A DNA stretch of 64,000 nucleotides, taken from an uncultured Candidatus Rokubacteria bacterium. Its GTDB lineage: Bacteria > Methylomirabilota > Methylomirabilia > Rokubacteriales > CSP1-6. Positions 1,218-43,734 of the stretch are shown here, piece by piece (the first letter of the stretch is position 1; each line of letters begins with the position of its first letter). The position numbers and the translations under genes were made by a program. Under the pieces are notes generated by a model. That model saw nothing but the letters and a program-made list of their open reading frames with translations, was not told where the DNA came from and did no database searches. The stretch is taken from assembly GCA_963721815.1 (NCBI GenBank), contig CAVRLO010000024.1, positions 422,234 to 486,233 on the forward strand, given 5' to 3'.

Positions 1218-1832
1218 TCACGCGAGCATCGCCAGAGCTTGCTGCAAGGTGCGGACGCGCGAGTACATCTTCATCGACTTGTCCAGGCTGTAGGCGTGGG
1301 CCGTGGCGTCGCCGCCCCAGCAGCACTCGCGTACGACGACGGTGTCGAGGTCCATGCTGAAGGCCTCGCGCACGCTCGTCTCGACGCCGCGATTGGTCGC
1401 GCCGCCGCCGATCACGATCGCGCCGCGGCGGAGCAGGCGCAAGAGCTCGGCCACCCCGGTGCCGTAGAACGCGCTCGGCCGGCGCTTGAGGAAGACGTAG
1501 TCCTCAGGTCGCGGCGCGATCTCGTCCGGGAAGCCCGCGTCGGGTGTGCCCTCGACACAATTCGTGAGCGACGGCACGCCCGTCTCGACGCTGAGGTCGG
1601 TCGGCAGCAGCACGACGTCGGCCCCGTCGGCGCGGCTGACCGGGGTGGTATAGATGATGGGCATCGCCCTTGCTCGGCAAGCCCCGATCAGGGCGATCCA
1701 GGCGTCGAGAACCGGCCGCATCGCCGCACGTCGGGCGGGATCGGCGGGCGTCAGGGCACGGCGGCAGGCGTCGTAGACGATCAGGGCGGCTCGCGAGGCG
1801 TCGACACGATCGGGTTTGGCTGTGGTATTCAT
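1218..1832 (-). CDS. isochorismatase-family cysteine hydrolase
   Basis: ORF 1218..1904; internal Met 'MNTTAKP' at 1832 is the likely start; 'VIGGGATNRGVETSVREA...RVRTLQQ' isochorismatase-like. Confidence 0.6.
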   Translation of the reverse strand: MNTTAKPDRVDASRAALIVYDACRRALTPADPARRAAMRPVLDAWIALIGACRARAMPIIYTTPVSRADGADVVLLPTDLSVETGVPSLTNCVEGTPDAGFPDEIAPRPEDYVFLKRRPSAFYGTGVAELLRLLRRGAIVIGGGATNRGVETSVREAFSMDLDTVVVRECCWGGDATAHAYSLDKSMKMYSRVRTLQQALAMLA

Positions 1833-1888
1833 GGGTCGAATTCTAATCCGGTCCGGGTTCACATCCCGGTCCGAGACGAGGTGATCCG

Positions 1889-2692
1889 ATGACAGAGTCC
1901 GCACGAGTGCACCTCATCGCCGGCGGCTTCCCTCCGGGATCGCTGGCCGGGCACGATCAGGACTACGCGCGCCTGCGCCTCCTCGGGCTCCTGGCGGAGC
2001 GCGAGATCCAGGCGTCCGTCGCCAACGACTTCAGCGATGTGGAGAAGTGGCTGGCGGTGAGCCGCTCGCTGATCACCTACGTGGCCGGCCCATACCCCGA
2101 CGCCGCCCAGTGCCGCGCCATCCAGCAGTGGCTCGAGGCCGGCGGACACTGGCTCGGCCTGCACGGCACGAGCGGCGGCCGCGCCGACCGCGTGGAGGGC
2201 GCGCGTCAGCGCCGGACGGTGAAGACCGAGCACCACGCGCTGCTCGGGAGCTATTTCCTGACCCACCCGCCGATCTGCAAGATCCGGGTCGACGTGACCG
2301 GCGGCGACTCGAGCCTGACGCGCGGGCTCGGCCCCTCGTTCGTCGTCGAGGACGAGCCCTACTTCATCGAGCTGCAGGATCCGAAGTCGACGCGGATCCT
2401 CCTGACCGCGGACTATGGCCCCACCGCGACGTCGCCGGCGATCGGCACCTTGTATCCATCGGACACCTCGCTGCAGCCGGACGGAAGGACCCGCGTGCTC
2501 GGCTACACGCGCACGGTCGGCCAGGGCGGCGTGGCCTACTTCGCACTCGGCCACTGCCATAACCCCGCGATCAGAGCGGCGCGCGCGGTCGATCCGACGG
2601 ACACGACGCCGCTCACGTTCCGTGGCTCGTGGGAGAGCGACGCGTTCATCACCTTGCTGCGCAACGCGATCACGTGGGGGGTGGGGGCGTAG
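1889..2692 (+). CDS. ThuA-like (trehalose utilisation / class-I glutamine amidotransferase-like) protein
   Basis: 267 aa ORF; 'HLIAGGFPPGS..HDQDYARLRLL' ThuA-type pattern. Confidence 0.5.
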   Translation: MTESARVHLIAGGFPPGSLAGHDQDYARLRLLGLLAEREIQASVANDFSDVEKWLAVSRSLITYVAGPYPDAAQCRAIQQWLEAGGHWLGLHGTSGGRADRVEGARQRRTVKTEHHALLGSYFLTHPPICKIRVDVTGGDSSLTRGLGPSFVVEDEPYFIELQDPKSTRILLTADYGPTATSPAIGTLYPSDTSLQPDGRTRVLGYTRTVGQGGVAYFALGHCHNPAIRAARAVDPTDTTPLTFRGSWESDAFITLLRNAITWGVGA

Positions 2693-2880
2693 TGCGCTTC
2701 GCTCCGCGGCGTCTGAATTCGGATACGTGTGTCGGATCTCGCGCTGCCAGCCGAGAATCTTCTTCTTTCGCGATTTGTGCTTGACAGCGCTCGGCGCGCG
2801 CGCTCGTTGACGCTCGCGCCTCGTTGTGAATCGCGCGCCTAAGCGCCCCAACGGCGCCGAGACGACAGCGATATCAGGTC

Positions 2881-3484
2881 GTGGTCCATGTGGACGCTCC
2901 GGTGCTGGCGGACCCGGAAGCTCCGGGGCAGTCGGCCCTCGAGGACGGGACGTGCGTTTCCGCGGAAACGTCTCAGAGGCTGGCATGCGAGGCGAGCCGG
3001 GTGGTAATGGCGCACGGGCCCGACGGCCGGGTGGTGGAGGTCGCCGCCCGGAGTCGCACTACTTCCTCGGCGTTACGGCGCGCGCTCCATCATCGAGATC
3101 ACGGGTGCCGGTTCCCGGGCTGCACCGTGCGCTTCGGGCAGGGCCATCACATTCGACACTGGGCTCAGGGCGGGCCCACCACGCTCTCGAATCTGGCCAT
3201 GCTCTGTCGCCGGCACCATCGGGCGGTTTCACGAGGAGGGCTATCAGGTCGAGCGACAGCCCGACGGCGCACTGCAGTTCCGCCGGCCGGACGGCGAGCT
3301 CTTGCCAGAGATCCCGCGCTCTCCTGCAATGCCCGCCGATCCGATGGCAACGATACGAAAGCGAAACGAAGCGGCAGGACTGATCGTGCACCCGCGCACC
3401 GCCATGCCGGGTTGGCGAGGCGAGCGCTTGGACGTCGGCTGGGCAATCGACGTGTTGTACCCTTTCGAGAATCCGGGCGCGTGA
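2881..3484 (+). pseudogene. HNH endonuclease (13E12-repeat type) C-terminal remnant; N-terminally truncated with a +1 frameshift near 3227
   Basis: 'CRFPGCTVRF..HHIRHWAQGGPTTLSNLAMLCRRHHRAV' in frame 1, then 'HEEGYQVERQPDGALQFRRPDGELLPEIP...RTAMPGWRGERLDVGWAIDVL' in frame 2; no DUF222 N-domain upstream; lower-GC flank 2693..2880. Confidence 0.6.
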
Positions 3485-3856: not shown

Positions 3857-5047
3857 ATGGGCGAGAGCGACGCGATCGTCGACGGGCACTGCGAGCCCGC
3901 GTTCAGGGCAGTGCGAGCCGCGCTAGGCGAGGTGCTCGCCTCCGGGTTCGAAGTGGGCGCGGCCCTGACGGTCTATGTCCACGGTCATGCCGCGGTCGAT
4001 CTGTGGGGCGGCCACGCCGACGCCGCGCGCACCCGACCATGGCAGCGCGACACCATCGTCAACCTCTACTCGGTCGGCAAGGCGATCAGCGCGGTCTGTG
4101 CGCTGCGCCTGGTCGACGCGGGCGTGCTCGATCTCGACGCGCCGGTGGCCAGCTACTGGCCCGAATTCGGCCAGGTGAACAAGGCGCGTATTCCCGTGCG
4201 CCATCTCTTGACCCATCAGGCGGGCTTGCCGGCCATCGCGCAGCCGCTGCCCTCGGGCGCGTGGCGCTCGTGGGACGTCATGACCGAGGCGCTGGCGGCG
4301 CAGGCGCCCTGGTGGGAGCCAGGTGCCGGCCACGGGTATCACGTCAACATGCAGGGATTCCTGATCGGCGAGCTCGTCCGACGCGTGACCGGTAAGAGCC
4401 TCGGCGCCTACCTGCGCGATAGCATCACGGGGCCCGCGGGCATCGACTTCTTCATCGGCTTCGGGCCCGAGCTCGACGCACGCTGCGCCGACGTGCTTCC
4501 AGCGAAGCCGAGCGCCGAGACGGCCGAGCTTCAGCGGCAGCTGAGCGTCGCTCCGGGCGGGCTGAGCGGGCTGCCTCTGATGCGCGTGAACGCCTACCGC
4601 AATCCGCCGGAGATTTCCGGGACCGGTGTCGTCAATACTCGACCGTGGCGTGCGGCCGAGGTGCCGTCGACGAATGGCCACGGCAACGCGCGGGCCGTCG
4701 CGCGCCTCTACTCGGCGCTGGCCGGCGACGGCGAGGTCGACGGAGTTCACGTGCTCTCGCCGGAAATCATCGCGCGCGCGAGCGCCGAGCACGTGTACGG
4801 CGACGACCTCGTGCTGCAGCGGCCGACGCGATTCGGCCTGGGCTTTCAGCTCACGATGGCCGAGCGCCGTCTCGGGCCGAGCCCGCGGGCCTTCGGACAT
4901 TTCGGCGCCGGCGGCTCGCTCGGATTCGCGGACCCCGATGCGCGCGTCGCCTTCGGCTACGCCATGAATCAAGGGCGGGGCGGATGGCAGCACAAGCACG
5001 TGCGCCACCTGATCGATCTCGTCTATGCGGCGCTCGGGCGACGGTAG
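3857..5047 (+). CDS. serine hydrolase (beta-lactamase/esterase family)
   Basis: 'SVGK' SxxK motif; 396 aa intact ORF. Confidence 0.75.
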   Translation: MGESDAIVDGHCEPAFRAVRAALGEVLASGFEVGAALTVYVHGHAAVDLWGGHADAARTRPWQRDTIVNLYSVGKAISAVCALRLVDAGVLDLDAPVASYWPEFGQVNKARIPVRHLLTHQAGLPAIAQPLPSGAWRSWDVMTEALAAQAPWWEPGAGHGYHVNMQGFLIGELVRRVTGKSLGAYLRDSITGPAGIDFFIGFGPELDARCADVLPAKPSAETAELQRQLSVAPGGLSGLPLMRVNAYRNPPEISGTGVVNTRPWRAAEVPSTNGHGNARAVARLYSALAGDGEVDGVHVLSPEIIARASAEHVYGDDLVLQRPTRFGLGFQLTMAERRLGPSPRAFGHFGAGGSLGFADPDARVAFGYAMNQGRGGWQHKHVRHLIDLVYAALGRR

Positions 5048-5120
5048 TTGTCATGCCCATCCGCCGGGTGCAGTATCAGGACGCCATGAGCGCCGTTAGA
5101 CGCGAACAGGAGACAGAGCG

Positions 5121-5684
5121 ATGAGCACCACCCCGACGTTTGGACGCTATGCCGAGATTCCCGTCGACCAGATGACCGCCGAGCAGAAGGAAGGCTACCG
5201 CTTCCTCGTCGACGGCCCGCGCGGCCGGCTCCCGGGCCCGTACAAGGTGTGGGTTCACAATCCCAAGCTGCTGCGCGCGGCCGCCCCACTCGGCGAGCAT
5301 TTCACGCCGGGCCATTCGTCGTTGACGGAGCGCGAGCGCGAGATCGCCGTGATCGTCATCACCAGCAAGTGGCACTCGGCCTACCCTGCCGCCGCTCACG
5401 AGAAACGAGGCAAGGAAGTCGGGCTGCCCGTTCCCGCCGTCGAGGCGATGATGGCCGGCCTTTCGGCCTCGTTCGCGGATCTGCGCGAGCAAGTTGTTTA
5501 CGAGCTGGCGACCACGCTCGCCGACGGCCGGCTGGTCTCCCAGGGGCTCTATGACCGCGCGGTCAAGGCGCTGGGCCACGAGAGCATCACCGACGTGGTC
5601 GTGCTGATGGGCTACTACACGGCCGTCTCGCTGACGATGAACGTCTACGCGGTGGCGGCCGGTACTCCCGGTCTGGCGCGCTGA
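5121..5684 (+). CDS. carboxymuconolactone decarboxylase (CMD/AhpD-like) family protein
   Basis: 187 aa; CMD-family pattern. Confidence 0.65.
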   Translation: MSTTPTFGRYAEIPVDQMTAEQKEGYRFLVDGPRGRLPGPYKVWVHNPKLLRAAAPLGEHFTPGHSSLTEREREIAVIVITSKWHSAYPAAAHEKRGKEVGLPVPAVEAMMAGLSASFADLREQVVYELATTLADGRLVSQGLYDRAVKALGHESITDVVVLMGYYTAVSLTMNVYAVAAGTPGLAR

Positions 5685-5697
5685 GGGAGGCAGCATC

Positions 5698-6519
5698 ATG
5701 GCGGCAGTCAAGATCACGGCGCTCCATCCGTCGCTCGGAGCCGAAGTCACCGGCGTCGACCTGAGCCACTCGATCGACGCGCCGACTCGCGAGGCGCTGT
5801 CGCACGCGCTGGCGGATCATCTGGCGCTCGTGTTCAGGGAACAGACCTTGACGCCGGCACAGTACCTCGCCGCCGCATCGGCGTTCGGCCCGCCGATGGA
5901 GCAGCACTACTCGCAGCACAACATGCCCGACTTTCCGCTGATCGGCCTGATCTGGCACCGGAACGGCCAGCAGCCCGCGGAGCAGTGGCACACCGACCAC
6001 ACCAACCGCGAGCGCCCGCCGGCCGCGACCATCCTGTACGGCGTGGAGATTCCATCCGCCGGCGGTGGCACGAGCGTGGCGAGCATGCGCGCGGCCTACG
6101 TCGCGCTTGCCGAGAGCGAACGGAGGCGCCTCGAGTCGCTGACGACGTTCAACAGCCTGGACCGCGATCGCGGCGACACGCGTCAGGACGATCTGGACAA
6201 GTACGGCAAGCCCATCGAGCACCCGATGGTGCGTACTCATCCCGTGCACGGCTCGCGGGCCGTGTACTTCCACATCACCAAGGCGACTCACATCGACGGA
6301 ATGACGCCCGAAGCAAGCCGGGCTTACATGGCCGACCTCCTCGACCGCATGATCCGGCCGGAGATCGTCTATCACCACGTGTGGCGCAAGGGCGACGTGC
6401 TGGTCATCGACGACCGCGCGACGATGCACCGGGCGCACGGGGATTACGATCGCCGCCAGAGCCGCATCCTCTGGCGGATCATCGTCGAGGGCGATCGGCC
6501 GCGGCTGGTGCTTGGTTAG
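5698..6519 (+). CDS. TauD/TfdA-family Fe(II)/2-oxoglutarate-dependent dioxygenase
   Basis: 'WHTDHTNRERPPAATILYGVEIPSAGGGTSVASM...RATMHRA' His/Asp facial triad pattern; SD GGGAGG. Confidence 0.8.
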   Translation: MAAVKITALHPSLGAEVTGVDLSHSIDAPTREALSHALADHLALVFREQTLTPAQYLAAASAFGPPMEQHYSQHNMPDFPLIGLIWHRNGQQPAEQWHTDHTNRERPPAATILYGVEIPSAGGGTSVASMRAAYVALAESERRRLESLTTFNSLDRDRGDTRQDDLDKYGKPIEHPMVRTHPVHGSRAVYFHITKATHIDGMTPEASRAYMADLLDRMIRPEIVYHHVWRKGDVLVIDDRATMHRAHGDYDRRQSRILWRIIVEGDRPRLVLG

Positions 6520-6545
6520 TCCGTTACGATCCGAAGAGGCGACAC

Positions 6546-6920
6546 ATGATCGAATACCGACTCGACACAGCGCATTCGATCTTGTACGTGCGGCTGAAGG
6601 CTGCGCTCGAGGAGAGCGACTTCGTGAAGCTGGCACGAGAGGTCGATCCGCACATCGAAGCCACGGGCGCGCTCGCGGGCCTCATCGTCGAGCTCTCCGG
6701 GTTTCCTGGCTGGGAAAGTCTTGGCGCGATGGCGGCGCACTTCCGCTTCGTTCGAGGTCACCACAAGCGCATCGGTAAGGTTGCCGTTGTCACGGACTCG
6801 GCGCTGGGCAACGTCGCAGAACATCTGGCATCGCACTTCGTGTCGGCGGCGATCAGGCATTTCTCGGCAGGAGAGCTCGCGGCCGCGCGACAGTGGATCA
6901 TGGGTTCAGCGCGGCCCTAG
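6546..6920 (+). CDS. STAS/SpoIIAA-like (DUF3478) protein
   Basis: 124 aa; 'GWESLGAMAAHFRFVRGHHKRIGKVAVVTD'. Confidence 0.5.
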   Translation: MIEYRLDTAHSILYVRLKAALEESDFVKLAREVDPHIEATGALAGLIVELSGFPGWESLGAMAAHFRFVRGHHKRIGKVAVVTDSALGNVAEHLASHFVSAAIRHFSAGELAAARQWIMGSARP

Positions 6921-7056
6921 GTCTCGCTCAGCGTCCGCCAGCAGATCGTCGAACGACGACGGCAGCTCGAGCGTGCGCCCCACGACGCCGGGGCTGTAGC
7001 CCTGGAGCCAGTAGCTGTTAGTCGGATGGCCGCCGCCCGCGACGACGATCACGAAG

Positions 7057-8619
7057 TTGTCAGGCGCTCGCGGTGATCGGCCACGGGTCGAGCGCGATGC
7101 TCTCGCGTACGACTTTGCTCGAGTCGATCTCCAGCCACGCCGGGCATCCGGAGCGCCGGAGATGCTCGGTCGGAATGCGCGAGTGCTCCCAGAGGAACTC
7201 GCGGATCGACGCTTTCGTCCAGCCCAGGCCGGCCATCGTGTTCGCCACGACGCCCGGGATCATCAGGATGCCCGGGGTGCCGTGCTCGTAGCCGGCGAGG
7301 CCCGGCATGTTGGGCACGCGCATGAAATCGGCCATGCGGTACATGCCCTGGAGCGCGTCCTCTTCGGGCGTCTCTTTCTTCGCTCCGCGGCGGCGGATGT
7401 TGGTGGCGCCGTTGGCGAACGTGAGCGAGATCGAATTCTTCCCCGGCGCGAAGGCGTGCCGCTCGGTGGCGTGCGGCGCCCAGCCCGGCGGCAGGTTCGC
7501 CTCGTCCTCGGCGAAGACGACGTTCGTGTAACGCACGCCGCCGTAGTTGGCCATCGTGCCGATGCCGGGCAGGGCGCCCCCGGCGTTCTGCTGCAGGAGA
7601 CGCAGCGCGCGGCCTATGCTGGCCCCGGCCGGTCGCTGCGGGTCAGGACCGAGGCAGCCGAAGCCGGCGTTGAGCCGGATCTGGGCGCCGATGGCTCCGT
7701 TGACGATCACCACGGGGAAGGCACTGCCTGACGCGGCCTGAAGCTGCGCGCTGCCGGACTCGGGATCGAGGAACGCATCGACCGCGCCGACGAGCACCGG
7801 CAGGTACTCGGGCCGCCCTCCGGCCATCGCGAGCGCGATCGCGCACGTCTCGATCGTCGTCACGCCGCCGCGGGGCGGAAAGATGCCGACCCGATGGCGC
7901 CGAGGGAGGGTGGCCCCGCGCAGGATCCAGTCCACTCGCTCGCGCGTCGGGGGCCAGAGCGGGAGACCGTCGCCCCAGCGATTCGCGAGCATCAGATGAT
8001 TCGCGCGGGCGAACGTGTCCTCCATGCTCGCGCCCTCGACCTTGATCATCGGCGCTTCGGCCGCGCCGTCGCCGCCGAAGGCCGAGCGCCATCGCGTCAG
8101 CCCGTCGTAGAACTCGCGCTTACGCGCTTCCACGGGGGAGATGTCGCTGCCCGGGAGGAACATCTCGATGGGGAATGTGACCATCGCCGCGTCGGGTGCC
8201 AGCCCGAGCCCGGCGACGGCGTTCGTCATGACGCCGACGAAGTCTGCACGGGTCAGGGTGACAGTCGGAATCCCGTGTGCTTCGAGCCTAGCGGCCGCCC
8301 GGCCGCATGCAGTGGCGCAGGACCCTCAGGCGGCGTTGCCGATGATGACGGCGTCGACCCCGCTGTGCTTGACCTGGGCCGCGGTCTCCTCCGAGCCGAT
8401 CAGCGCGTTGCCCTGAGGAAACGCGTCGAGCGGCAGCACCTCGATCCCCGGGAAGTCGGCCTCGAGCAGCTTTTTCAGGAGCGGCAGCATCCGGAAGGCC
8501 TGCCACTGGTCGTTGCTGACGAAGCCGACGCGCTTGCCGTCGAGGGCGGCGACGCGCGGCGCGAACGGTTGCTTCACCTCGATCGCGCCTGACGGATCGT
8601 GGAACTCGAGCGTGACCAT
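7057..8619 (-). CDS. UGSC-family selenoprotein: GrdB-C-terminal-like domain fused in frame to a ~390 aa uncharacterised domain; UGA (Sec) at 8326..8328
   Basis: ORFs 8326..8619 and 7060..8229 are in the same frame, separated only by TGA in the context 'GVDAVIIGNAA-U-GSCATACGRAAARLEAHGIPTVTLT'; the context parallels GrdB-like 'GVDAVILTST-U-GTSTRCGAAITRELERAGLPTV'; AGGAGG RBS before ATG 8619. Confidence 0.65.
8326..8328 (-). other. in-frame UGA, predicted selenocysteine codon (UGSC motif)
   Basis: followed by GCGGCC-GGGC-GGCCGC hairpin (SECIS-like). Confidence 0.6.
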
Positions 8620-8711
8620 CGCGTGCCTCCTGCACGAGTCATGCGTGCGTGTCGATTATATCCATCCGGCGACATTGACGCGTCGTGCATTGCGCCGATA
8701 CGATTGCCGTG

Positions 8712-9290
8712 ATGGTCGACTACGAGATCAGGACGCGCCGCTTCACCCGGGTGGAGTACGAGAGGCTCATCGACCTGGGCGTGTTCCAGCCGGGCGAGGC
8801 CATCGAGCTCATCGGCGGCGAGCTCATGGTCGCGGAGCCGCAAGGCGCTCCACACTACACGGCGATCCGTAAGACTGCGAAGGCGCTCGAGGCTGCGTTC
8901 GGGCCGGGGTGGGAAGTCCGGACGCAGGGTCCCATCGGGCTCGACGATGAATCGGAGCCCGAGCCCGACGTCGCCGTCGTCCCCGGAGCGCCGGACGACT
9001 ATGTTCGCGTGCATCCCGCGCGTCCGGTGCTCACGGTAGAAGTGGCCGAGACGAGCCTCGTCCTTGATCGGCAGCGCAAGGGCAGTCTCTACGCCCGGGC
9101 CGGCCTCCCGGACTACTGGGTGCTCAACCTGGTCGACCGCGTCCTCGAGGTGTACCGAGGGCCGGTCGTCGATTCCGCGGCGCCCTTCGGCTGGCGTTAC
9201 GGTCGCGCCGATGTGCTCGATGCCTCCGCTGAGGTTGCGCCTCTGATCGCGCCGGAAACGCGCATCCCGGTCTCCCGGCTTCTGCCCTGA
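8712..9290 (+). CDS. Uma2-family (DUF820) putative endonuclease
   Basis: 'EPEPDVAVVPG...PDYWVLNLVDRVLEVYR' Uma2 pattern; tandem paralog of the next gene. Confidence 0.6.
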   Translation: MVDYEIRTRRFTRVEYERLIDLGVFQPGEAIELIGGELMVAEPQGAPHYTAIRKTAKALEAAFGPGWEVRTQGPIGLDDESEPEPDVAVVPGAPDDYVRVHPARPVLTVEVAETSLVLDRQRKGSLYARAGLPDYWVLNLVDRVLEVYRGPVVDSAAPFGWRYGRADVLDASAEVAPLIAPETRIPVSRLLP

Positions 9291-9295
9291 CTCCC

Positions 9296-9871
9296 ATGCA
9301 GCAAGCGGAGCGGCTGCGTCGCTGGACCCGGCACGAGTACGAGCGGCTGATCGATCTCGGGTTCCTGGACGAGGACGACCCGATCGAGCTACTCGATGGG
9401 TTGCTGTTCGTCAAGGAGCTACAGCACAGCCGACACAGGACGGCGGTGCTTCTCGTGGCGAGAGCATTGGAGCGAGCGTTCGGGGAGGGCTGGTTCGTTC
9501 AGACCCAGAGCCCGATCATTCTCGACGACCGGTCGGAGCCGGAGCCGGACGTCTGCGCCGTGCGCGGCTCGCCGCGCGACTACGTCGATGCGCACCCGAC
9601 GCGCCCGGCGCTCGTCGTCGAGGTCGCCCTGTCAGGCTTGCGGCTGGCGCGAGGGCGAAAGGCCGCGGCGTACGCCCGCGCCCGAATCGCGGACTACTGG
9701 ATCGTCAACCTGATCGATCGGGTGCTCGAGGTTCATCGCGAACCGTCGAGACCAGGTCCGGCTCGGCGGCAGTGGACCTACACGGCCTTCGAGACGCTCG
9801 GCGCCGACGCGACGATCACCCCGCTCGCCGCGCCAGCCGCCCGCATCCGCGTCGCCGATCTTCTGCCGTAG
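9296..9871 (+). CDS. Uma2-family (DUF820) putative endonuclease
   Basis: 'EPEPDVCAVRG...ADYWIVNLIDRVLEVHR'; 5 bp after the previous paralog. Confidence 0.65.
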   Translation: MQQAERLRRWTRHEYERLIDLGFLDEDDPIELLDGLLFVKELQHSRHRTAVLLVARALERAFGEGWFVQTQSPIILDDRSEPEPDVCAVRGSPRDYVDAHPTRPALVVEVALSGLRLARGRKAAAYARARIADYWIVNLIDRVLEVHREPSRPGPARRQWTYTAFETLGADATITPLAAPAARIRVADLLP

Positions 9872-9880
9872 GCGACCCCG

Positions 9881-10810
9881 CTAGAGCTTGATCCGCAGCA
9901 GCTTCGCCGCCGTCTCGCTCAGCATCGCCCGGCGATCCGCGTCACTGAAGCCCGGAGCTTTCAAGATGTGATCGATCGACTTGTCCTGCCAGGGGATCGG
10001 ATGGTCGGTCCCGATGACGAGCTGACTCACGCCGACTTCCGCCGCCAGGTGACGCAGTGCCTCCGAGGTGAAGACCAGGGTGTCGTAGTACATCTGGCGG
10101 AGATACTCGGTCGGCTTCTTCTTCAGCTTGACGCCGGTGTCCATGTCCGGCGCGACCCGCAGGCTGTTGTCCGAGCGCGGCGCGTAGGACGGCAGGAAGC
10201 CGCCGCCGTGGGCCGAGCAGATCTTGAGCCGCGGGAAGCGATCCAAGGTGCCCTCGAAGATCAGGTGCGAGAGCGCGATGGTCGTGTCCAGCGGGTTGCC
10301 GATCGTGTTCGCGAGCCAGCCGTTGCCCTGGAATCGCTTGGCCAGATCCGGCGTGCTCTGCGGATGAATGAAGATGAGCACGCCGAGCTCCTCGGCCTTG
10401 GCCCAGAACGGATGAAACTTCGCGTCGGAGAACTCGTCCCCGGCGACGCTCGCGCCGACGGCGGCGCCGCGCAGCCCGAGCCTTTTCACGCCGTCGACGA
10501 GCTGTTCGACCGCGAGATCCGGATACTGGAGCGCGACCGATGCGAAGGCCACGAAGCGGTCCGGGTACTTCCCGCAGAACTCCGCGAGCCGCGTCGTTCT
10601 GGATCTTGATCACCTGGGTCACCAGATCGCGCTCGGCCCGATACCACGCCGGGTTGATACTGAGCGCCTCCATGTCGATGCCCTGCGCGTCCATCTCCCG
10701 GATGCGCCGAGGGCCGACCTCGTCGATCCCGGGCCCGCGATGGTCTTGCACCTTGAGCCCCAGCAGCGCGTACGCCTCCGGGATCACGCAGTGCGCGTGC
10801 ACGTCGATCG
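9881..10810 (-). CDS. amidohydrolase-2 family (ACMSD-like metal-dependent hydrolase); apparent frameshift near 10590; start uncertain
   Basis: N-terminus 'KTIDVHAHCV' in the frame of ORF 9942..11003; remainder 'FVAFASVALQYPD...GTDHPIP' in the frame of ORF 9881..10552. Confidence 0.55.
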
Positions 10811-19815: not shown

Positions 19816-20283
19816 TCAAGTCGTAGCCGCGGCGCGCCTCGCCTCGCGCAGCCCGGCGAGGATCGCATCGCGATCGAGGCTCATTTCCATCAGCGCGACC
19901 TGGGCCTCGTACACGTCCGCCGGCACCTGGTCACGCACCTCGGGCTCGAACACGTGAAACACAGGGAGCCCCAACGGGACTCCGGCCAACGGGCCCGCGT
20001 AGGAAGGATCGCCGGCGACGACGGTCTGGGCGAGCGTCTGCGTGCTCTCGGCGTCGGGGGTCCCGAGCAGGACCACCACGCCGCTGCCGTGCTCGTCCGC
20101 GATTCGCTTCACCGCCGCTTGATCCTCCAGGCCCATGGCGCCCGCCGCCGTTCAGACGTAGCAAGCGGTCAGGGTCAGCACGACGTCGGCGCCAGCGCGG
20201 CTCGCGCATTCCGCGACCGCGGGGCCCGGCACGCCGTCGCGCTCGCCGAGCGCGATGACCTTCTTGCCTCGGAGATCCATCAT
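19816..20283 (-). CDS. grdA: glycine/sarcosine/betaine reductase complex selenoprotein A (GrdA); UGA (Sec) at 20152..20154
   Basis: '[61 protein letters not shown]' matches the GrdA CxxU context; ATG overlaps the GrdC-like stop (ATGATG/TGA). Confidence 0.8.
20152..20154 (-). other. in-frame UGA, predicted selenocysteine codon of GrdA
   Basis: conserved position 44 in the 'CYVU' motif. Confidence 0.75.
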
Positions 20284-21734
20284 GTCGCTCCTTTCGCTCC
20301 GTTGCGCTCCAGGACGAGCGAGAGCCCGTCGGGGAGCTGCGTCATCCGTCCAAGAAACAGACTACCCTTGCCCGCGAACATCGTGCGGGTGAGGCGGCCC
20401 TCCGTGAGCCCGCGCCGCGCGTGGCCGAGGTACGGGATCGCCGAGGCGATGTGCCCCTGGGTCGGCGAGAATCCCGGCATGCCGCGCGTACGAACGAAAT
20501 CGTCGATGCCCTCGCGAGCGATCAGCTTCTCGACGACGGCCAGGCTCGCCAGGGTCCGGTAGTTGTTGAGCGGGACGTTGCCGCTGCCGGCGGGCTCGGT
20601 CGCTTCGGGGTTGTGCAGCTCGAGCGAGAAGCGGTCGACGTCGAGCAACGTGAGGCCGACCCGCCCGAGCGGCTCGCTGTAGAGCGATTTCACCACCGCG
20701 AGCGGGGCGGAGCCCGAGCCGACCTCGTGGCGGCCGATCGCGTCGAGCCGCAGGGTGGGCGAGACGCCGTCGTCGCGCGAGACGTGAACGGCGAAGCCGG
20801 CCAGGACGTCCTCGACGATCGGCATCGCGTGCTTCAGGTGGCCCTGGAACTTCATCCCCAGCTTGGCCAGCGAGCCGCCCGCCACCACGACCACGTCGTC
20901 GTGCAGGCCGCTGCGGACGAGCGCGCCGGCCAGCATCAGCGCGTGCATCGGCCCGCAGCAAAACGCCTTGATGTCGCTGCCGGTCGCGCGCGCGCAGCCG
21001 GCCCACTCCGCGACCGCCTTGGCGACGTTGCCGCCGCCCCGCTGATAGCGGTCGCCGACCGCCTCCTCACCGCAGTTCATGACGTAGCGCACGTCGGCGG
21101 CGGCGATCGCGCCGGGGCGCGCGAGCAGGTGACGCAGCGCCATCGCCGCGGTCGCCTTGCACGCGAGGTTCTCCAGCAGGACCTGGCCGGTCAAGGTGTC
21201 GTCCTCGTCGTGGCCCGGCAGCATGGCACCCAGGAGCCGTCCGTCCACCCCGACGATCGGCAGCGCCCGATGCCTCGCGATGCGCTCGTCGAGCAGGGCC
21301 TCGGTGACCCCGGCGCGCACCGGAGGGCGGCCGGACTCGCGACCAACTATGGGATGCGCGTCGAGCGCCGCGCGCGCGCGGTCGGCCAGGTCACGCTCGA
21401 GGGCCAAAAGGTCGAAGCCATCCGAGGCCGCCAGCAGGCCGAAGAACTCGTGCTCGGGCATGATCTCGCCGTCGGGCCCGAAGCGGCTCGCGGCTTCGAT
21501 GGGATGGCGATGCCACGGGACCGGCCGGGCGGCGAGGTCGTCCACGCCGACATTGCCGATGAATACCTGATTGGGCGCGTAGGTGCGCGCGGCGTCCCAG
21601 TCGCGCAGATGGGGCCGCAAGTACTCGATCGGTTTCTCGACCTCGCGCAGCACGCGCAGCGGCTTCGAGCCCAGGCGCACGAGGCTCGGCACGTGCGCCA
21701 GCACGAGGGAGACCGCGCGGACAACGGGCATGTC
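20280..21734 (-). CDS. GrdC-like protein (glycine reductase complex component C beta-subunit-like, thiolase/FabH-fold)
   Basis: ~485 aa; coupled to grdA; start chosen at '[18 protein letters not shown]' (ORF runs to 21767). Confidence 0.55.
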
Positions 21735-21763
21735 GCTCGAAGGCATGCGAGTCACGCGAGGCA

Positions 21764-22629
21764 TCATACCCTCTGGCCGGCTCGCAGCGCACGGTAGCGG
21801 GCAGGCGTGAGGCCAAAAGCCGATTTGAACGTTCGGGTGAGGTGCGCCTGGTCGGCGAAGCCCACCTCGTACGCGACCTCGATCAGCGGACGCCCGCGAT
21901 GAATCAGCTCGCGCGCGGCATCGAGGCGGCGCATGAGCAGATACCGGTAAGGGCTCGTGCCGAACATGAGCCTGAACTGGCGGGCCAGGTCGTAGCGGGT
22001 CAATCCCGTGACCGACTCCAGCTCGTCCGAGCGAACCACGCGCGTTTTCGCGGCGTCCAGAAACCGGCGCGCGCGCTCGGCGGCGACGGCGTCGACCCGT
22101 CTCGAGGCCCCGGGAGGTTCCCCTGCGTGCTCCGCGGCGAGCAGGCCGTCGGCCAGATCGACGACGAGACTGGTCGCCGCCAGCGATTCCAGCGGGAGCC
22201 GGAAGGCGGCGTCGAGCGCGCGGGCCAACCGGGTGTTCGCGGACACCGGGTCACGTACGAACGGCAACGGACCGGGACGTCCACGGAGGGTCCGCACCGC
22301 CTCGGCCAGGTGGGCGGGCTCGACGTAGACGATGCGGTATCCGAACCCCTCCTCGGTGCCCGCGCGGCCGTCGTGGGCTTCGTCGGGGTAGAGCACGACG
22401 ATCTGTCCCGGGGTACTGACCCGTGTGGCGCCCCGGTAGTCGAAGACTTGGGCTCCGCGGTCGGTCAGGCCGATCGCGTACGTGTCGTGGCGGTGCTTCT
22501 GGTAGGCGACGCCGCCGAACCAGGCGCGAAACAGCTCGACGCCCTCGGCCGGGTTCGTGCTGGTGACCCAGCTTCGGGTCGCGCGCGTGCACGATCGTTC
22601 AAGACCCTCGCCGCCCGATGTGGTCTCCT
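21764..22629 (-). CDS. AraC-family transcriptional regulator (cupin N-domain + HTH)
   Basis: C-terminal 'YRYLLMRRLDAARELI...EVAYEVGFADQAHLTRTFKSAFGLTPARYR'; GTG start proposed at 22629. Confidence 0.6.
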
Positions 22630-22649
22630 GGATGCGCACTGGAGACAGA

Positions 22650-23248
22650 GTACGACTACAGAGCAGCTCGCCGCGTTCCTTCTGTTCGCCGTGGTGGCCG
22701 CGGTCACACCCGGACCCAGCAACGTCATGGTGATGGCCGCCGGCGCGAATGCCGGCCTCGTGAAAGGGCTTCCGTGCCTCCTCGGTGTCGCGACCGGCAT
22801 GGGGCTCATGATGTTCCTGGTGCCGCTCGGGCTGGGGAGCGTCGTGCTCCAGCATCCCATCGGGATGAAGGCGCTCAACTGGGGCGGCGCCGGCTATCTA
22901 CTCTGGCTCTCGTGGAAGATCGCAACCGCGAGGGGTATCGAATCGGCTCCCGGGTCGCGGACGGTCGGCTATCTTCAGGCCGCGGCGTTTCAGTGGGTCA
23001 ACCCAAAGGCGTGGCTCGTGAGCGCGAGCGCCGCGGGAACGTTTCTCAGCGCGCAGGCGGGCAGCCCGGCCGTGCAGTCCGTCTATCTCGGCGGGCTCTT
23101 CTTCCTGGCGGCACTGCCGAGCGGCTTTGTCTGGCTGGCGTTCGGGGCCACGATCCAACGCTTTCTCGGGAGCCCACGGAGACTCAGGATCTTCAACGTC
23201 GCGATGGGGGCCCTCCTCGCCGTCTCGATCGCCCTCATCGTCGCGTAG
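22650..23248 (+). CDS. LysE/RhtB-family amino-acid exporter (start codon unresolved)
   Basis: 'FLLFAVVAAVTPGPSNVMVMAAG' LysE N-terminus; no canonical start in frame upstream; divergent from the AraC gene. Confidence 0.55.
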
Positions 23249-23263: not shown

Positions 23264-23944
23264 CTACCGGCTCCCCACCGGGCTTTGGCCGGCGATCTGC
23301 GCCGTCTCGGGCGACAGCGGAATCACACCGCCGGGCTCGCCGGCCAGGATCCAGTCGATGAGCAGGCGATAGCGATCCGTCGGCACGGCGCCCACCAGCG
23401 AGAGCTTCTCGTTGAGGACGACGGTCGGCAGGCCCGACACGCCGAACCACGCGGCGCCCTCGGCGCAGTCGCGCAGCACGGCTTCGTAGGCCTCGCCGGC
23501 GTAGTCGGCCTCGAAGCGCGTCGGATCGAGCGCCGTTTCGCGGATGAGGCTGCGCAGCACCTCCGGGCGCGAGATGTCGAGGTTGTCGCGGAAGTGCGCG
23601 GTGAAGAGCCGCTCGTGGAATCGCTCGAACGCCGCGTCACCCTGGAGCTCGGCGCACTTGGCGGCCGTCAGCGCCGGCACGCTCGAGGACGGCAGCGGCG
23701 TGTCGATCTCCGGCGGCACGAAGACGGCGCGAGGCTCCTCGGCGCCGACGCGCTGCCGCCCTTCGCGCGTCTTCTGGGTGACGCGCCGGTCGGGCTGCTC
23801 GCCCGGGATCAGCGGGAAGGTCCGCCAGTGGAGCCGGATACGATCGCCGTAGGTCTGCTGGATCTCGCGCAGGCGCACCGCGGCGTTGTAACACCAGGGA
23901 CACAAGTAGTCAGAGAAGACGTCCACGCGGACCGGCGCGGTCAT
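23264..23944 (-). CDS. DsbA-like (FrnE-type) thioredoxin-fold oxidoreductase with CPWC motif
   Basis: 'VDVFSDYLCPWCY'; ATG overlaps the GrdB-like stop (ATGA). Confidence 0.7.
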   Translation of the reverse strand: MTAPVRVDVFSDYLCPWCYNAAVRLREIQQTYGDRIRLHWRTFPLIPGEQPDRRVTQKTREGRQRVGAEEPRAVFVPPEIDTPLPSSSVPALTAAKCAELQGDAAFERFHERLFTAHFRDNLDISRPEVLRSLIRETALDPTRFEADYAGEAYEAVLRDCAEGAAWFGVSGLPTVVLNEKLSLVGAVPTDRYRLLIDWILAGEPGGVIPLSPETAQIAGQSPVGSR

Positions 23945-25264
23945 TCGCGCGTGAACACCGTGGGCCGCGCCACCTCGGTGCGCAGCGCCTGGAGCGCCTG
24001 CTCGACGATGCGCCGCCGCAGCGCCTTCTCGTCCTCGGGCGAAAGATCCGCGCTGCCCAGGGGATGGATGATCCCCGCGGCCGACACGATGCGATTGGCG
24101 CCGACCATCACCGCCACCGGCGTCATGGTCGAGACCTGCACCGTCGGTAACCCCGCGCGCTCGAGCTCTCGCGTGATCGCTGCGCCGCAGCGAGTGCTCG
24201 TCCCTCAGGTGGAGGTGAGGATGACGGCGTCGACGCCGGCGGCGCGCAGCTTCTCCGCGATCTCCCGCCCCATGCGCGCGCTCTGGGCCAGGGTGGTCGC
24301 GACGCCGACGGTCGAATAGACCGTCTCGTGGAGCTTGCCGATCGCGCCGCTCTGCTCGAGCTCGCGCGCGACGTCCACGGGCACCAGCCGATGCGGATCC
24401 TGCTTTACCCACGTGGTGTCGTAGCCGCGATGCGGATTGTCGTACTGGGTCGCGTCGAGGCTCGACTTGCCCTCGATGCTGTAGGCGCCGTAGCGGGTCG
24501 CGTTCAGGGCCTCGATCCCGTCGGGGTTGCCTTGCGGGACGAGACCGCCGTCGGTGACGAGCGCGATCGTCGCGCCCTCGAGCGTCTTGATGAGCCGCGG
24601 CGCCGCGACGGGCGGGAACGCCGGCCTCGGCACCTCCGTCGCGAAGGCCCGGCCGCCGAGCTTGTCGAGCAGCATGGCCACGGCGCGATCGGCGGCGCTG
24701 GCGCCGGCGACGACGTTGCGGGTGACGCCACGGGCGAAGTAGCCGTGAGCGGCCGGGCTGCCGAGCGCCTCGCCGCGCGCGAGCTTCAATCCGAGCCCCA
24801 CGAGCCGCTGCACCTCCGGGAGCATCCGCGTGGCTTCCGCGCCGGTCTGGACGACGTAGACCTGGCGGCGATAGAGCTCGACGCCGGGATTCTCGGCGTG
24901 CATGCCGGTCACGGTCGGAATCTTCAGCTCGGCTTGCACCGCGGCGCAGAGCGCGCCGCACGCGACGCCGTAGCGGCCGGCCAGGAACGCCGGGCCCGGC
25001 CACCAGGAGATCGGGCCGCGCCGCGGCCACCAGGCGCACCAGCTCGGCGGTCGCGCGCTCGGCCTGCTCGGCCGCGTAGTTGTCGCCGCAGATCACCGTC
25101 GCGACGACCGTGCCCGCGTCGCCGAGCGCCTGCTGGACGGCGCGCGCGGCCCCGACGGCCCCGTCCGCGACCTGGGGCCCGACGCCGGCCTTCTCCTCGC
25201 CGCCGAGCTGGCCGAAGAACTGGTTGAGGTAGCAGACGACTCGCAACGTCTCGGCCGCCATCAC
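23941..25264 (-). CDS. GrdB-like selenoprotein (glycine/sarcosine/betaine reductase component B family), paralog 1; UGA (Sec) at 24205..24207; apparent +1 frameshift near 24990
   Basis: N-terminus 'LRVVCYLNQFFGQLGGEEKAG' (ORF 23264..25264 frame); middle 'AFLAGRYGVACG...GVDAVILTST' then TGA then 'GTSTRCGAAITRELERAGLPTVQVSTMTPVAVMVGANRIV' (ORFs 24205..24939 and 23941..24141 share a frame). Confidence 0.7.
24205..24207 (-). other. in-frame UGA, predicted selenocysteine codon of GrdB-like paralog 1
   Basis: 'ILTST-U-GTSTRC' context; CGCTGC-GGC-GCAGCG hairpin downstream. Confidence 0.7.
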
Positions 25265-41054: not shown

Positions 41055-42395
41055 TCAGGTGAGCGGCGCTCGGGGGCCGTCTACTCGATGCAGCTCAAGC
41101 TGCTGAAGCCATAGTGGTCGTCGTACCGCCACGGCGGCGGGAGCGGCCCCGCCGTCGGCAGCGCGGCGCCGTCCACGCCGCCATGAAGCCCGATGGTCGA
41201 GCCCCGCCGCACGATCTTCGTGGGCGCGCCGATCACGCGCGAGACCGCGGGCGCTTCGGGCACGGCCAGGGTGACGTTCTTGAAGAAGCTCGTGCTCACG
41301 ATCGCGTCGGCCTCGGGCAGGGGCTCGAGCATGGTGGGCGCGCCGTCGGTCGCGTCGTCCTCGCTGGTGAGGAACACGGTCTTGATGCCGAGGCGCTCGC
41401 ACGCCTGGATGCTGCGCACCACCTCGATGAACTCGTTGCCTCCCGCGTCCCACGTGACCACGGCGCCCTGCGCGCCGAGCTGGCTGGGCGAGCTTGGCCG
41501 TCTGATTGGCCATCAGCTGCTTCTCGGTTTGCGTGGTCCACTCCGTGCGGAGCGAGATGACGCCGAGGAAGTTCCAGTCGCGGCCGTGGCGGCGGTAGAG
41601 GTCGAGGAAGAGCGGATTGTTGGCGACGGTCCATGACATCGCGAACGCGGTGCGGTAGGGGCCGGTGAGCGCGCCGTCCAGGATCTCGTTCGGGTGCAGA
41701 TACCACGGCGGCGTGAGCTGGGTCAGGCCGTACGTCGCCGTGCAGAACGCCGAGGGTGATGCCGACATCGCCTGCGGCGAGTGCACGCACCAGATGTAGA
41801 CCACCTTCGGGAGCTCCGGATCCACCGGCGTCAGCTCGAAGACCTCGCGCTCGGGCGGCGTGAGCGCGCGCACCGCTTCGCCGAGCTGGTCGGCGACGGT
41901 GAGCGCCGCCTTGTGCACGGCGTAGTTCTTGACCTCTTCGTTCAGGCTCGAATCGGGCTCGACGACCAGGCAGAGGTTCAGGAGCTTCTGGTAGGGGTAC
42001 ATCTCGCCGTAGTGGCCGGACATGTCGAGGTACGTCTCGACGAAGTCGCCGCCGGCGTCGTGCCAGTTGACGCTCGACACCTCGACGACGCCCATGCCGG
42101 CGAGGCGATGCGTGCGGCCGTCGCCCACCGTGGCGATCTCGCGCCCGCAGATGCCGGGATAGCAGACGCCGGGCCCCTCGACCTTGACGCGCGGCTCGAT
42201 CACGTCGCGCACCGGCCAGATCCGGACCGACTCGCCCGGCTTCGCGATCTCGAGCCCGGCGCTCGCGATCCGCGGATCCTGGCGCACCGCCTCCAGCACC
42301 GCCTCGCGGTCCACCGTGAGCCGGCCCGCGTCGTAGCGCGTCGTTCGCCCGAAGACGATGTCCGTGACCGGGAAGGTGCCCATCTCAAGACGCAT
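41055..42395 (-). CDS. GrdE-like proprotein, paralog 2; apparent +1 frameshift near 41495
   Basis: N-terminal ~320 aa in the ORF 41055..42395 frame; C-terminal '[27 protein letters not shown]...' in the ORF 41081..41461 frame; homologous to paralog 1. Confidence 0.55.
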
Positions 42396-43734
42396 GAGCC
42401 GCCTCCTCAGTCTTACCTGGCGCCATAGGGTCGAAGAGCGTCGGCCCGGGCACGGCGATCGTCAGGGTCTGGAGCGCGGTGGTCACGATGCGCATACCGA
42501 AGGCGTAGTCCTTCTCCGGGCTCAAGGTCGGGTCGCCGCACACGTGCTCGATGCGCGCGCCGCGGATCACGCGGTTCGCGCCGGTCGTGAGGGCGAAATT
42601 GTAGATGGCCGAGATCATGCCGACGGGGATGCCGACTCGCTCGATCTCCTTGGCTATCGTTGCGCCGCAACGATTGCAGGTTCCTCAGGTGGCGACCAGC
42701 AGGGCCCCGTCGACGCCGCCGGCCTTGAGGTCCTGGGCGATGCTGCGGCCGTGCCCGGCCGACACCGCCACCGGCGTGCTCACGCCGGGCAGCGCGTAGA
42801 TGTGCTCGTGGACGCGGCCCACCTTGCCCTGGCGCTCGAGATCGCGCAGGAACGAGAGCGGCAGGATGTAGTTCGGGTTGCTGTTGACGAGATGGTTGAA
42901 GTAGCCGGCGTGGTAGGCCTCCCATTCGGCCGGCGAGAGCGACTCGAGCTCGGTCACCGTGTGCCGGTGATAGCGCACGGCGTTCGCCGAGACCTGCCGG
43001 TCGGGGTTGCCTTTGCGGACGAGCCCGCCGGTCGTGACCATCGCGATGCGCGCGCGCGAGAGGTCGGCGATCGGCGCCGCCGGGGCCACGCGCTCCGGCG
43101 CCGCGTAAGGCACTTCCGACCGAAAGGGCCGGCCGTGGAGCTTGTCGAGCAGCATGTCGAGCGCGCGCTGATAGCCCGGTCGCCCGCGGTCGTGCACGCG
43201 GCGCGTGCCGCGAGGCATGTAGCCCTCCACCTCGGACGGCCCCAGCGACTCACCGCGGCCCAGGCGCCGCGCGAGCGGGGCCAGCGCGTCGAGCGCGGCC
43301 TGCATCGACGTCGTCGACGAGCCCGAGGGCACGATGTAGATCCCGCGCCGCGCGCCCGAGGCGCCCGGATTTTCCGGATGCATCGCCGTGATCGCGGCAA
43401 TGCGCAGCCCCTGGGCCACCTTGCAGGCGAGCGCGCAAGCCAGGCCGTATCGCCCCGATCCGAACGCCGGACCGGCGACCAGCACGTCGGGCTTGATGCG
43501 CTCGAGCTCGGCTGCGATCGCGCGCGCGGCTTCGGCTTCGCTTTCGCTCGCGAAGTTGTCGCCGCAGACGATGGTCGCCTCGACTCGCGCGCCGTCGCCG
43601 AGCGCCTTCTCGAGCACGCGCCCCGGGCCGACGGCTCCGGCTTGCACGGACACGCCGACGTGCGCCTGATCCTCGCCGCCGATGCCCCCGAAGAACTGGT
43701 TCACGTAGTGCACGACGCGAAGCGGACTGCTCAT
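42385..43734 (-). CDS. GrdB-like selenoprotein, paralog 2; UGA (Sec) at 42685..42687; frame intact
   Basis: '[18 protein letters not shown]' N-terminus; '[10 protein letters not shown]' then TGA then '[30 protein letters not shown]' (ORFs 42685..43734 and 42385..42618 share a frame). Confidence 0.75.
42685..42687 (-). other. in-frame UGA, predicted selenocysteine codon of GrdB-like paralog 2
   Basis: 'VAT-U-GTCNRC'; ATCGTTGC-GGC-GCAACGAT hairpin starting 13 nt downstream. Confidence 0.75.

Follow-up and report, generated by a model that had tools for sequence, protein, structure and literature searches.

A UGSC-family gene of an uncultured Rokubacteria bacterium appears to encode, across an in-frame UGA, a selenoprotein fused to a large uncharacterised domain

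Introduction

Knowledge of UGSC selenoproteins goes back to the Sargasso Sea and Global Ocean Sampling (GOS) analyses of 2005-2008, their function being unknown (PMC2398784; PMC1976440). They have been regarded as thiol-oxidoreductase-like, a thioredoxin (Trx)-like fold having been suggested for them, and the GOS sequences comprised 255 forms with selenocysteine (Sec) and 21 with Cys (PMC2398784). The 2008 paper also reports a 'UGSC/Unknown_1' fusion (PMC2398784), whose Unknown_1 part may be the large C-terminal domain described here, and the family was still uncharacterised in reviews of 2022 and 2026. Here we describe a gene of this family found on the minus strand of a 64,000-nucleotide (nt) stretch of DNA from an uncultured Candidatus Rokubacteria bacterium (contig CAVRLO010000024.1, positions 422,234 to 486,233; this whole stretch is hereafter the window), in which an in-frame UGA, judged by comparison with homologous loci, is a Sec codon that joins an N-terminal UGSC domain (N-domain) to a large C-terminal domain (C-domain).

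The window gene is a further member of a known family, and as such a selenoprotein specialist would find in it nothing new or surprising. What is new here is the selenocysteine insertion sequence (SECIS) element recognised by comparative analysis, the fusion in every locus checked, the large size of the family, the predicted fold, the conserved site and the corrected end of the gene. An earlier reading of the window made from its letters alone (the sequence-only reading) had proposed a real selenoprotein gene with a UGSC domain and an in-frame fusion, and this interpretation was correct in its essentials.

The in-frame UGA codon

Translation of the window from 8619 to 7057 gave, from an ATG at 8619..8617, an open reading frame (ORF) of 97 codons ending in GVDAVIIGNAA, a TGA at 8328..8326 and then GSCATACGRAAARLEAHGIPTVTLT..., the next stop codon being found only at 7062..7060. 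Read without correction this makes 519 uninterrupted codons, in exact agreement with the sequence-only reading. A Shine-Dalgarno sequence, AGGAGG, was read directly at 8631..8626, 6 nt upstream of the start codon, and it is conserved in the closely related locus L001. The codons 1-518 (M1...S518), which include the Sec codon, occupy 7066..8619 and showed 88-89% nucleotide identity to the orthologues in L001 and L062. Once its end was corrected as described below, the comparative evidence indicated that 8619..6906 is one gene, for a two-part selenoprotein of about 570 amino acids (aa; 570 in the corrected product).

Close homologues, searched for with the fused protein in which U had been replaced by C, fell into two classes. 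Those of the first, of about 440 aa and 85-92% identity, covered only the part that follows the TGA; those of the second, of about 575 aa and 63-66% identity, covered 100% of the query and had 'NAA-C-GSC' at the aligned site. A scan of one genome per species provided 80 homologous loci, all of them matching from residue 1-4 through 562-575, and 82 loci were examined in total. The codon at the Sec position was TGA in 74 and a Cys codon (TGC or TGT) in the other 8, neither TAA nor TAG was present at this position in any of the 82, and the gene was contiguous through it to about residue 570 in every one. The motif among these loci was U-G-[S/A/T]-C. Sec forms were found in Burkholderiales and other Betaproteobacteria, Rokubacteria/Methylomirabilota, Dormibacterota and others, and Cys forms mostly in metagenome-assembled genomes of Alphaproteobacteria. 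The recurrence of the same TGA in the same context in 74 of 82 loci from different species, together with Cys in 8, goes far beyond chance, and on this comparison the in-frame UGA (8326..8328, minus strand) is the codon of Sec98. The sequence-only reading had taken this UGA for Sec, and the alternation of Sec and Cys, along with the SECIS covariation described below, bears it out.

The source organism probably uses Sec: a GrdA-like gene ('CYV-U-TAAGAM' at 20154) and a GrdB-like gene ('LVAT-U-GTC' at 42687) with UGA codons are also present in the window, the latter with a match to the Rfam family SECIS_4. No tRNA-Sec was found within the window.

The SECIS element

A bacterial SECIS hairpin was localised 18 nt downstream of the TGA, at 8308..8290 (minus strand), its loop G lying 26 nt after the UGA. 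In an alignment of 74 distinct Sec-form sequences comprising 66 nt from the UGA onward (alignment A2), the stem consisted of an invariant 5-bp GCGGC/GCCGC helix (columns 23-27 with 34-38), with 10 G-C to G-U variants; in the window it is of 6 bp and the closing pair is A-U. The apical loop was G-rich (CGUGCA or CGGGCG) and a bulged U was present at column 22. The closing pair, formed by columns 21 and 39, falls on the synonymous third positions of two Ala codons and covaried (AU 33, GC 14, UG 11, CG 4, unpaired 12); the covariation score was reached by 0 of 500 shuffles and all the slid controls collapsed. The hairpin had moved 4 nt upstream in the Sec forms L020 (GCCCU-GGGC-AGGGC) and L040 (GCUCU-GGGC-AGAGC), which differ from each other by a compensatory change. 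The eight Cys forms had no common hairpin.

At the window site no SECIS family of Rfam matched even at E up to 10, and folding the 74 nt after the UGA as a single sequence gave z = +0.55, which is uninformative in a GC-rich context. The sequence-only reading had suggested looking for a bacterial SECIS downstream of the UGA, and the hairpin was seen there by comparative analysis, not by single-sequence folding. According to the description of bSECISearch, bacterial SECIS elements reportedly have the apical-loop G within about 16-37 nt of the UGA, a range into which the 26 nt of the window falls.

Sec forms nearly always read U-G-S-C-A-T-A-C-G, and in them the Cys105 codon UGC (window 8317-8307) is part of the SECIS stem. 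Leu was found instead of Cys105 in the Cys forms and in L020 and L040, the Sec forms with a shifted hairpin. Since Leu replaces Cys105 where the stem is absent or shifted, RNA element and protein sequence seem to place constraints on one another.

The UGSC domain and its fusion to the C-domain

Residues 7-151 (8167..8601, minus strand) matched the UGSC family of Pfam, PF24696, with 76.4 bits against a cut-off of 25, in accordance with the assignment made in the sequence-only reading. The Cys of the U-G-S-C motif, the putative resolving residue Cys101, is encoded by the TGC at 8319..8317 (minus strand). The window protein shares with the UGSC family (PF24696/NF041046) the U/C-G-S-C motif, a Pfam score above the threshold and a large excess of Sec over Cys forms (74 and 8 here, 255 and 21 in GOS). 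It scored 49.4 bits with the NCBIfam equivalog model NF041046, below the cut-off of 125; the more distant fused relatives P0204 and P0255 scored 120 bits. In contrast to UGSC proteins of a single small domain (models of 172 positions for PF24696 and 147 for NF041046, the latter implying about 150 aa), the window protein has 570 aa, and a C-domain of about 380 aa was fused to the UGSC domain in all 82 loci.

The C-domain comprises approximately residues 190-570 (6909..8052, minus strand). Searches with 69 diverse members against Pfam, with 10 members against NCBIfam and with a profile against the PDB gave no match beyond UGSC. The fusion to a large uncharacterised domain put forward in the sequence-only reading was thus found in 82 of 82 loci and without a curated family for the C-domain, PF24696 being the only one of the UGSC and Pfam models suggested there for a search that the protein matched above threshold.

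In an exhaustive HMMER search the C-domain family comprised 3,453 representative clusters, formed at 50% identity, when E was limited to 1e-3, and 2,058 when it was limited to 1e-10. In every member with a readable upstream region, the C-domain follows a UGSC domain within one polypeptide. Most representatives of 420-470 aa start just after the Sec position ('...GIPTVTI...') and, because they begin right there, each is one half of a Sec-split fusion. Among diverse representatives, down to about 30% identity, the start likewise lies just past the Sec position; in L089, at 31% identity, a single frame reads 'YGD-U-GSC...WSDGLPVIPPT', and P0223, which seemed to be a stand-alone C-domain, is a Sec-split fusion. 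No genuine stand-alone C-domain was demonstrated in this family, P0253 and P0225 being ambiguous at contig ends. On these sequence grounds the UGSC/C-domain fusion is ancient. A census that used a query resembling the canonical UGSC domain gave 3 matches only and was uninformative as to the architecture.

All the family members bear the source name 'hypothetical protein'. In public gene calls (P0001-P0120; L001, L083-L085) the gene is split into a UGSC stub of about 97 aa and a 'hypothetical protein' of about 440 aa, one cluster of the latter holding 387 member sequences. In L001, whose protein is 92% identical to that of the window, gene callers gave a 97-aa UGSC ORF and a 443-aa ORF with the same TGA between them. 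One representative, P0176 (717 aa), differs in its N-terminal region, which opens with a 'DGWPVILPT'-like motif, and it could be a tandemly duplicated C-domain that lacks UGSC.

Predicted structure and conserved residues

The AlphaFold2 (AF2) model of a 575-aa Cys form, 63% identical to the corrected window protein, was obtained with a diverse alignment (A3) and had a predicted local distance difference test (pLDDT) score of 92.9 and a predicted TM-score (pTM) of 0.94; an earlier run with a shallow alignment, of pLDDT 61, was discarded. In this prediction the two domains form a single packed unit. In the model, the N-domain has the order beta-alpha-beta-alpha-beta-alpha-beta-alpha-beta of a doubly wound domain, and residue 98 is placed at the N-terminus of the helix 99-114. 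Fold matches, given without query ranges and at 5-18% identity, were to flavodoxin, CheY, Rossmann-like and B12-binding alpha/beta structures and not to Trx. We infer that these matches belong to the N-domain, which would then be flavodoxin-like rather than Trx-like as suggested in 2008, and that the C-domain is without a near relative of known structure. The resemblance to flavodoxin-like, CheY-like and B12-binding domains is one of generic fold, with no shared cofactor motifs.

The C-domain residues conserved in at least 80% of the family were D217, T225, T255, Y272, N307, R337, E371, E373, W380 and K468, of which E371 was invariant. Family-conserved too are the motifs W215-x-D-G-L-P-x-x-P-P-T225 and E371-x-E373, and all the family-conserved residues of the C-domain are kept in the corrected window protein. 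No Cys of the C-domain was conserved family-wide, the maximum being 52% of sequences; C259 and C322 were invariant in the close subfamily, and Cys was frequent at columns 268, 322 and 368 in the broader family.

Resemblance to GrdB and PrdB

The window protein resembles GrdB and PrdB (PF07355, TIGR01917, NF040794/5, TIGR04483) around the Sec residue, where both have a strand, Sec, a helix and a 'G-I-P-T-V' strand, with Sec aligned on Sec and a U-x-x-C couple; the segment is GVDAVIIGNAA-U-GSC...GIPTV in the window protein and ends in ...GIPV in GrdB. The NCBIfam models of GrdH, GrdF, PrdB and GrdB gave weak matches at the Sec loop (E 0.017-0.08; 12-14 bits against cut-offs of 300-800), hhalign against the GrdB-like protein of the window placed Sec on Sec over 46 columns with a probability of 28% (E 6e-4), and PF07355 (GRDB) was not matched by the window protein. 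The sequence-only reading held that the N-domain mirrors the Sec-bearing half of GrdB; the Sec loop does align, but the likeness is only local and weak, with homology not established.

In other respects the two differ. The similarity extends over only about 46-55 residues, the order of domains is reversed, the Sec module being N-terminal, the large domain is unrelated to the N-domain of GrdB, and there are no linked grdA/C/D/E genes. A circularly permuted GrdB was considered and rejected, since the C-domain profile gave hhalign probabilities of 2.9% with the N-domain of the window GrdB and 0.04% with Gly_reductase (GrdE-like). None of about 90 loci had a grd-type gene within 8-10 kb of the homologue, and because of this the distance of 11 kb to grdA in the window is probably coincidental. 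The idea that the protein is an additional redox partner of the grd cluster 11 kb away, raised in the sequence-only reading, thus gained no support.

Frameshift and true end of the gene

Every homologue runs about 52-57 residues past the apparent stop of the window gene ('...ITAS-PDNFVIVVAGGGHPTNSYWLQGYSPGVVGR...DLGPR'), and the missing C-terminal sequence is intact in the window, one frame over. Nucleotide alignments with L001, L062, L091 and L092 showed an extra G on the coding strand at 7065 (minus strand), the sole uncompensated indel in the gene, which makes the false stop at 7062..7060. Because the extra G shifts the frame, the gene ends at 6906 and not at 7060. The last 52 codons (PDNFVIVVAGGGHPTNSYW...DLGPR), which match the C-termini of P0001, P0005 and P0055, and the true stop TGA (6908..6906) make up the second part of the coding sequence, at 6906..7064 (minus strand). 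The end at 7060 given in the sequence-only reading was therefore an artefact of the frameshift, and the length of the C-domain had been understated there for the same reason.

The extra G was absent from all of about 90 related loci, and among metagenome contigs a 24-mer with it had 0 exact matches and the same context without it had 2. Truncation at 7060 removes the last 52 residues, including the GGGHPTN motif (528-534), which is invariant in the close subfamily only. Judged from these alignments, the extra G would stem from an error of assembly or else from an inactivating mutation of very recent date.

Genomic neighbourhood

In the closest relatives, L062 and L001, the fusion gene is the last of a co-oriented cluster (SBP_bac_5, ..., DAO-family oxidoreductase, M20 peptidase, Amidohydro_2, fusion gene) and begins some 20-50 nt beyond Amidohydro_2. 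This cluster recurs in the window, but there two genes of the Uma2 family (putative restriction endonucleases, PF05685) are inserted before the selenoprotein gene, at 8685-9290 and 9296-9871, both on the plus strand. The Amidohydro_2 ORF of the window (9881-10552, minus strand; 223 aa) matched only profile positions 83-289, nucleotide homology to L062 extended about 430 nt further upstream (to 10983), and a net +1 nt was found near 10590 with respect to L001 and L062; its N-terminus may be mis-delimited or shifted.

The neighbours in other loci were ApbA, TauD, Fer2_2/MoCoBD molybdoenzymes, luciferase-like monooxygenases, ABC transporters, MmgE/PrpD and CoA-transferase III, and in Burkholderiales a TctC/Bug-type binding protein was often directly adjacent. 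L089 has two split pairs in tandem, the Sec-split fusion at 1765-3483 and a second pair at 4803-6536 (a 102-aa UGSC ORF and a 468-aa ORF without a Pfam match), with a PGA_cap gene between the pairs and two MmgE/PrpD genes downstream, suggesting paralogous expansion within catabolic islands.

As to the genes of grd type in the window, the GrdB-like gene (42380-43734, minus strand) matched PF07355 with 382 bits and reads 'LVAT-U-GTCNRCG' at its TGA (42687). The SECIS_4 match, at 42647-42684 (minus strand; 42.5 bits), was the only Rfam match in the window, and a Gly_reductase-family gene (41055-42395) lies just downstream of the GrdB-like gene. The GrdA-like motif at about 20154 (minus strand), with its in-frame TGA, is adjacent to a DUF5940 gene (20280-21767) and a gene for an AraC-type regulator (21764-22855). 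A 666-aa ORF (23264-25264, minus strand) contains a fragment of the GRDB family (residues 7-92 only) and a DSBA-like thioredoxin domain (446-633), an unusual architecture, and could be a fusion or an artefact of the ORF listing across two genes.

Discussion

The explanation that we favour, and to which we give a good deal of confidence, is that the window carries a frameshifted copy of a gene for a UGSC/C-domain selenoprotein that has Sec at residue 98 and would act by a redox mechanism. Sec98 and Cys101, at the start of a helix of the predicted doubly wound (flavodoxin-like) domain, would form a selenol/thiol to selenenylsulfide couple, and the C-domain may bind a small imported carboxylate or amino-acid-derived substrate by means of its conserved polar set, D217, T225, T255, Y272, N307, R337, E371, E373 and K469. 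The selenol would then attack or reduce the substrate in the manner of GrdB or PrdB, and the Se-S bond would be re-reduced by a thioredoxin-type/thiol system. The local likeness to the Sec loop of GrdB and PrdB hints at this chemistry and suggests it, but does not prove it; the catabolic and transport neighbours (SBP_bac_5, DAO, M20 peptidase, Amidohydro_2, TauD, ApbA, MoCoBD and TctC/Bug-type) were also counted in favour of the mechanism.

Several points weigh against this explanation. The chemistry is purely hypothetical, and the proximity of Sec98 to the conserved residues of the C-domain is only presumed. The similarity to GrdB is weak, as the hhalign probability shows, and the score with NF041046 places the window protein, by this sequence criterion, outside the equivalogs of the canonical UGSC proteins. 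Since the genes around it vary within the family, no pathway is assignable. Finally, if the frameshift is real, the window copy is probably non-functional.

That there are two separate genes, the UGA ending a 97-aa UGSC fragment and the downstream domain being translated from the ATG at 8229, would agree with the automatic calls of a 97-aa and a 440-aa ORF in L001 and L083-L085. However, the Cys-form homologues are single ORFs of 575 aa, the 96 nt from the TGA to this ATG encode protein sequence that is conserved in the Cys forms, and the ATG itself is without a Shine-Dalgarno sequence, its Met being replaced by Val or Thr in homologues. With the SECIS covariation and with TGA as the sole stop codon at the site (74 of 74 cases), we find the two-gene arrangement scarcely credible; the homologues do not end at the TGA ahead of a separately initiated gene, which the sequence-only reading had named as the finding that would refute the fusion. 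Only marginally less improbable is that the protein is a GrdB-type component, or a redox partner, of the glycine/sarcosine/betaine reductase-like clusters in the window. Although grdA-like, GrdB-like and Gly_reductase genes are 11-35 kb away and the Sec loop aligns locally to GrdB, no grd-type gene accompanies the homologues within 8-10 kb in about 90 loci, the GrdB, GrdH, GrdF and PrdB models are far from their cut-offs, PF07355 is not matched, and the C-domain is related neither to the N-domain of GrdB nor to GrdE-like proteins.

The possibility that the UGSC domain is a built-in thioredoxin-like reductant or redox switch for a Cys of the C-domain, and is not itself catalytic towards the substrate, deserves more weight, although we consider it unlikely. 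It is in line with the invariant C259 and C322 of the close subfamily, with the frequent Cys at the three columns of the broader family and with the treatment of UGSC as thiol-oxidoreductase-like in the literature (PMC2398784); yet, since no Cys of the C-domain is conserved throughout the family, a dedicated reductant domain is unlikely to explain a fusion present in each locus checked. A stronger rival concerns the window copy alone, which might be a decaying pseudogene, with a real frameshift at 7065 and uncoupled from its operon by the two inserted Uma2 genes. Of about 90 loci the window alone has the insertion, which was not met with in the metagenome scan either and takes away the GGGHPTN motif, invariant in the subfamily, and the Uma2 genes (8685-9871, plus strand) stand between Amidohydro_2 and the selenoprotein gene, where L001 and L062 have a short gap. 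On the other hand, the 52 codons past the shift are intact, stop-free and still conserved, no further uncompensated indel or stop is present in the gene, all the conserved residues, the SECIS and the gene's own Shine-Dalgarno sequence are preserved, and a single-base indel is a typical assembly error. We are inclined to doubt that the copy is decaying.

As for the selenoprotein family as a whole, a bolder proposal, which we make only tentatively, is that the fusion represents a self-contained, previously unrecognised class of Sec-dependent reductases. A GrdB/PrdB-like Sec loop would deliver the selenol into a large catalytic domain without a close solved relative and reduce, or reductively cleave, small carboxylate or amino-acid-derived substrates; across soil Rokubacteria, Burkholderiales and further uncultured lineages, the paralogues of this class would number in the thousands. 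The family is abundant, Sec-rich and uncharacterised, and the window copy is an ordinary member of it, possibly broken by a frameshift. UGSC is among the few selenoprotein families in which Sec forms are far above Cys forms, and this predominance suggests that selenium is important for UGSC chemistry. The gene has been systematically mis-annotated, and reading the UGA as Sec restores a single enzyme. The family becomes tractable with a two-domain model of high confidence, a defined site of conserved polar residues, natural orthologues of the Cys form, whose expression requires no Sec machinery, and catabolic and transport neighbours.

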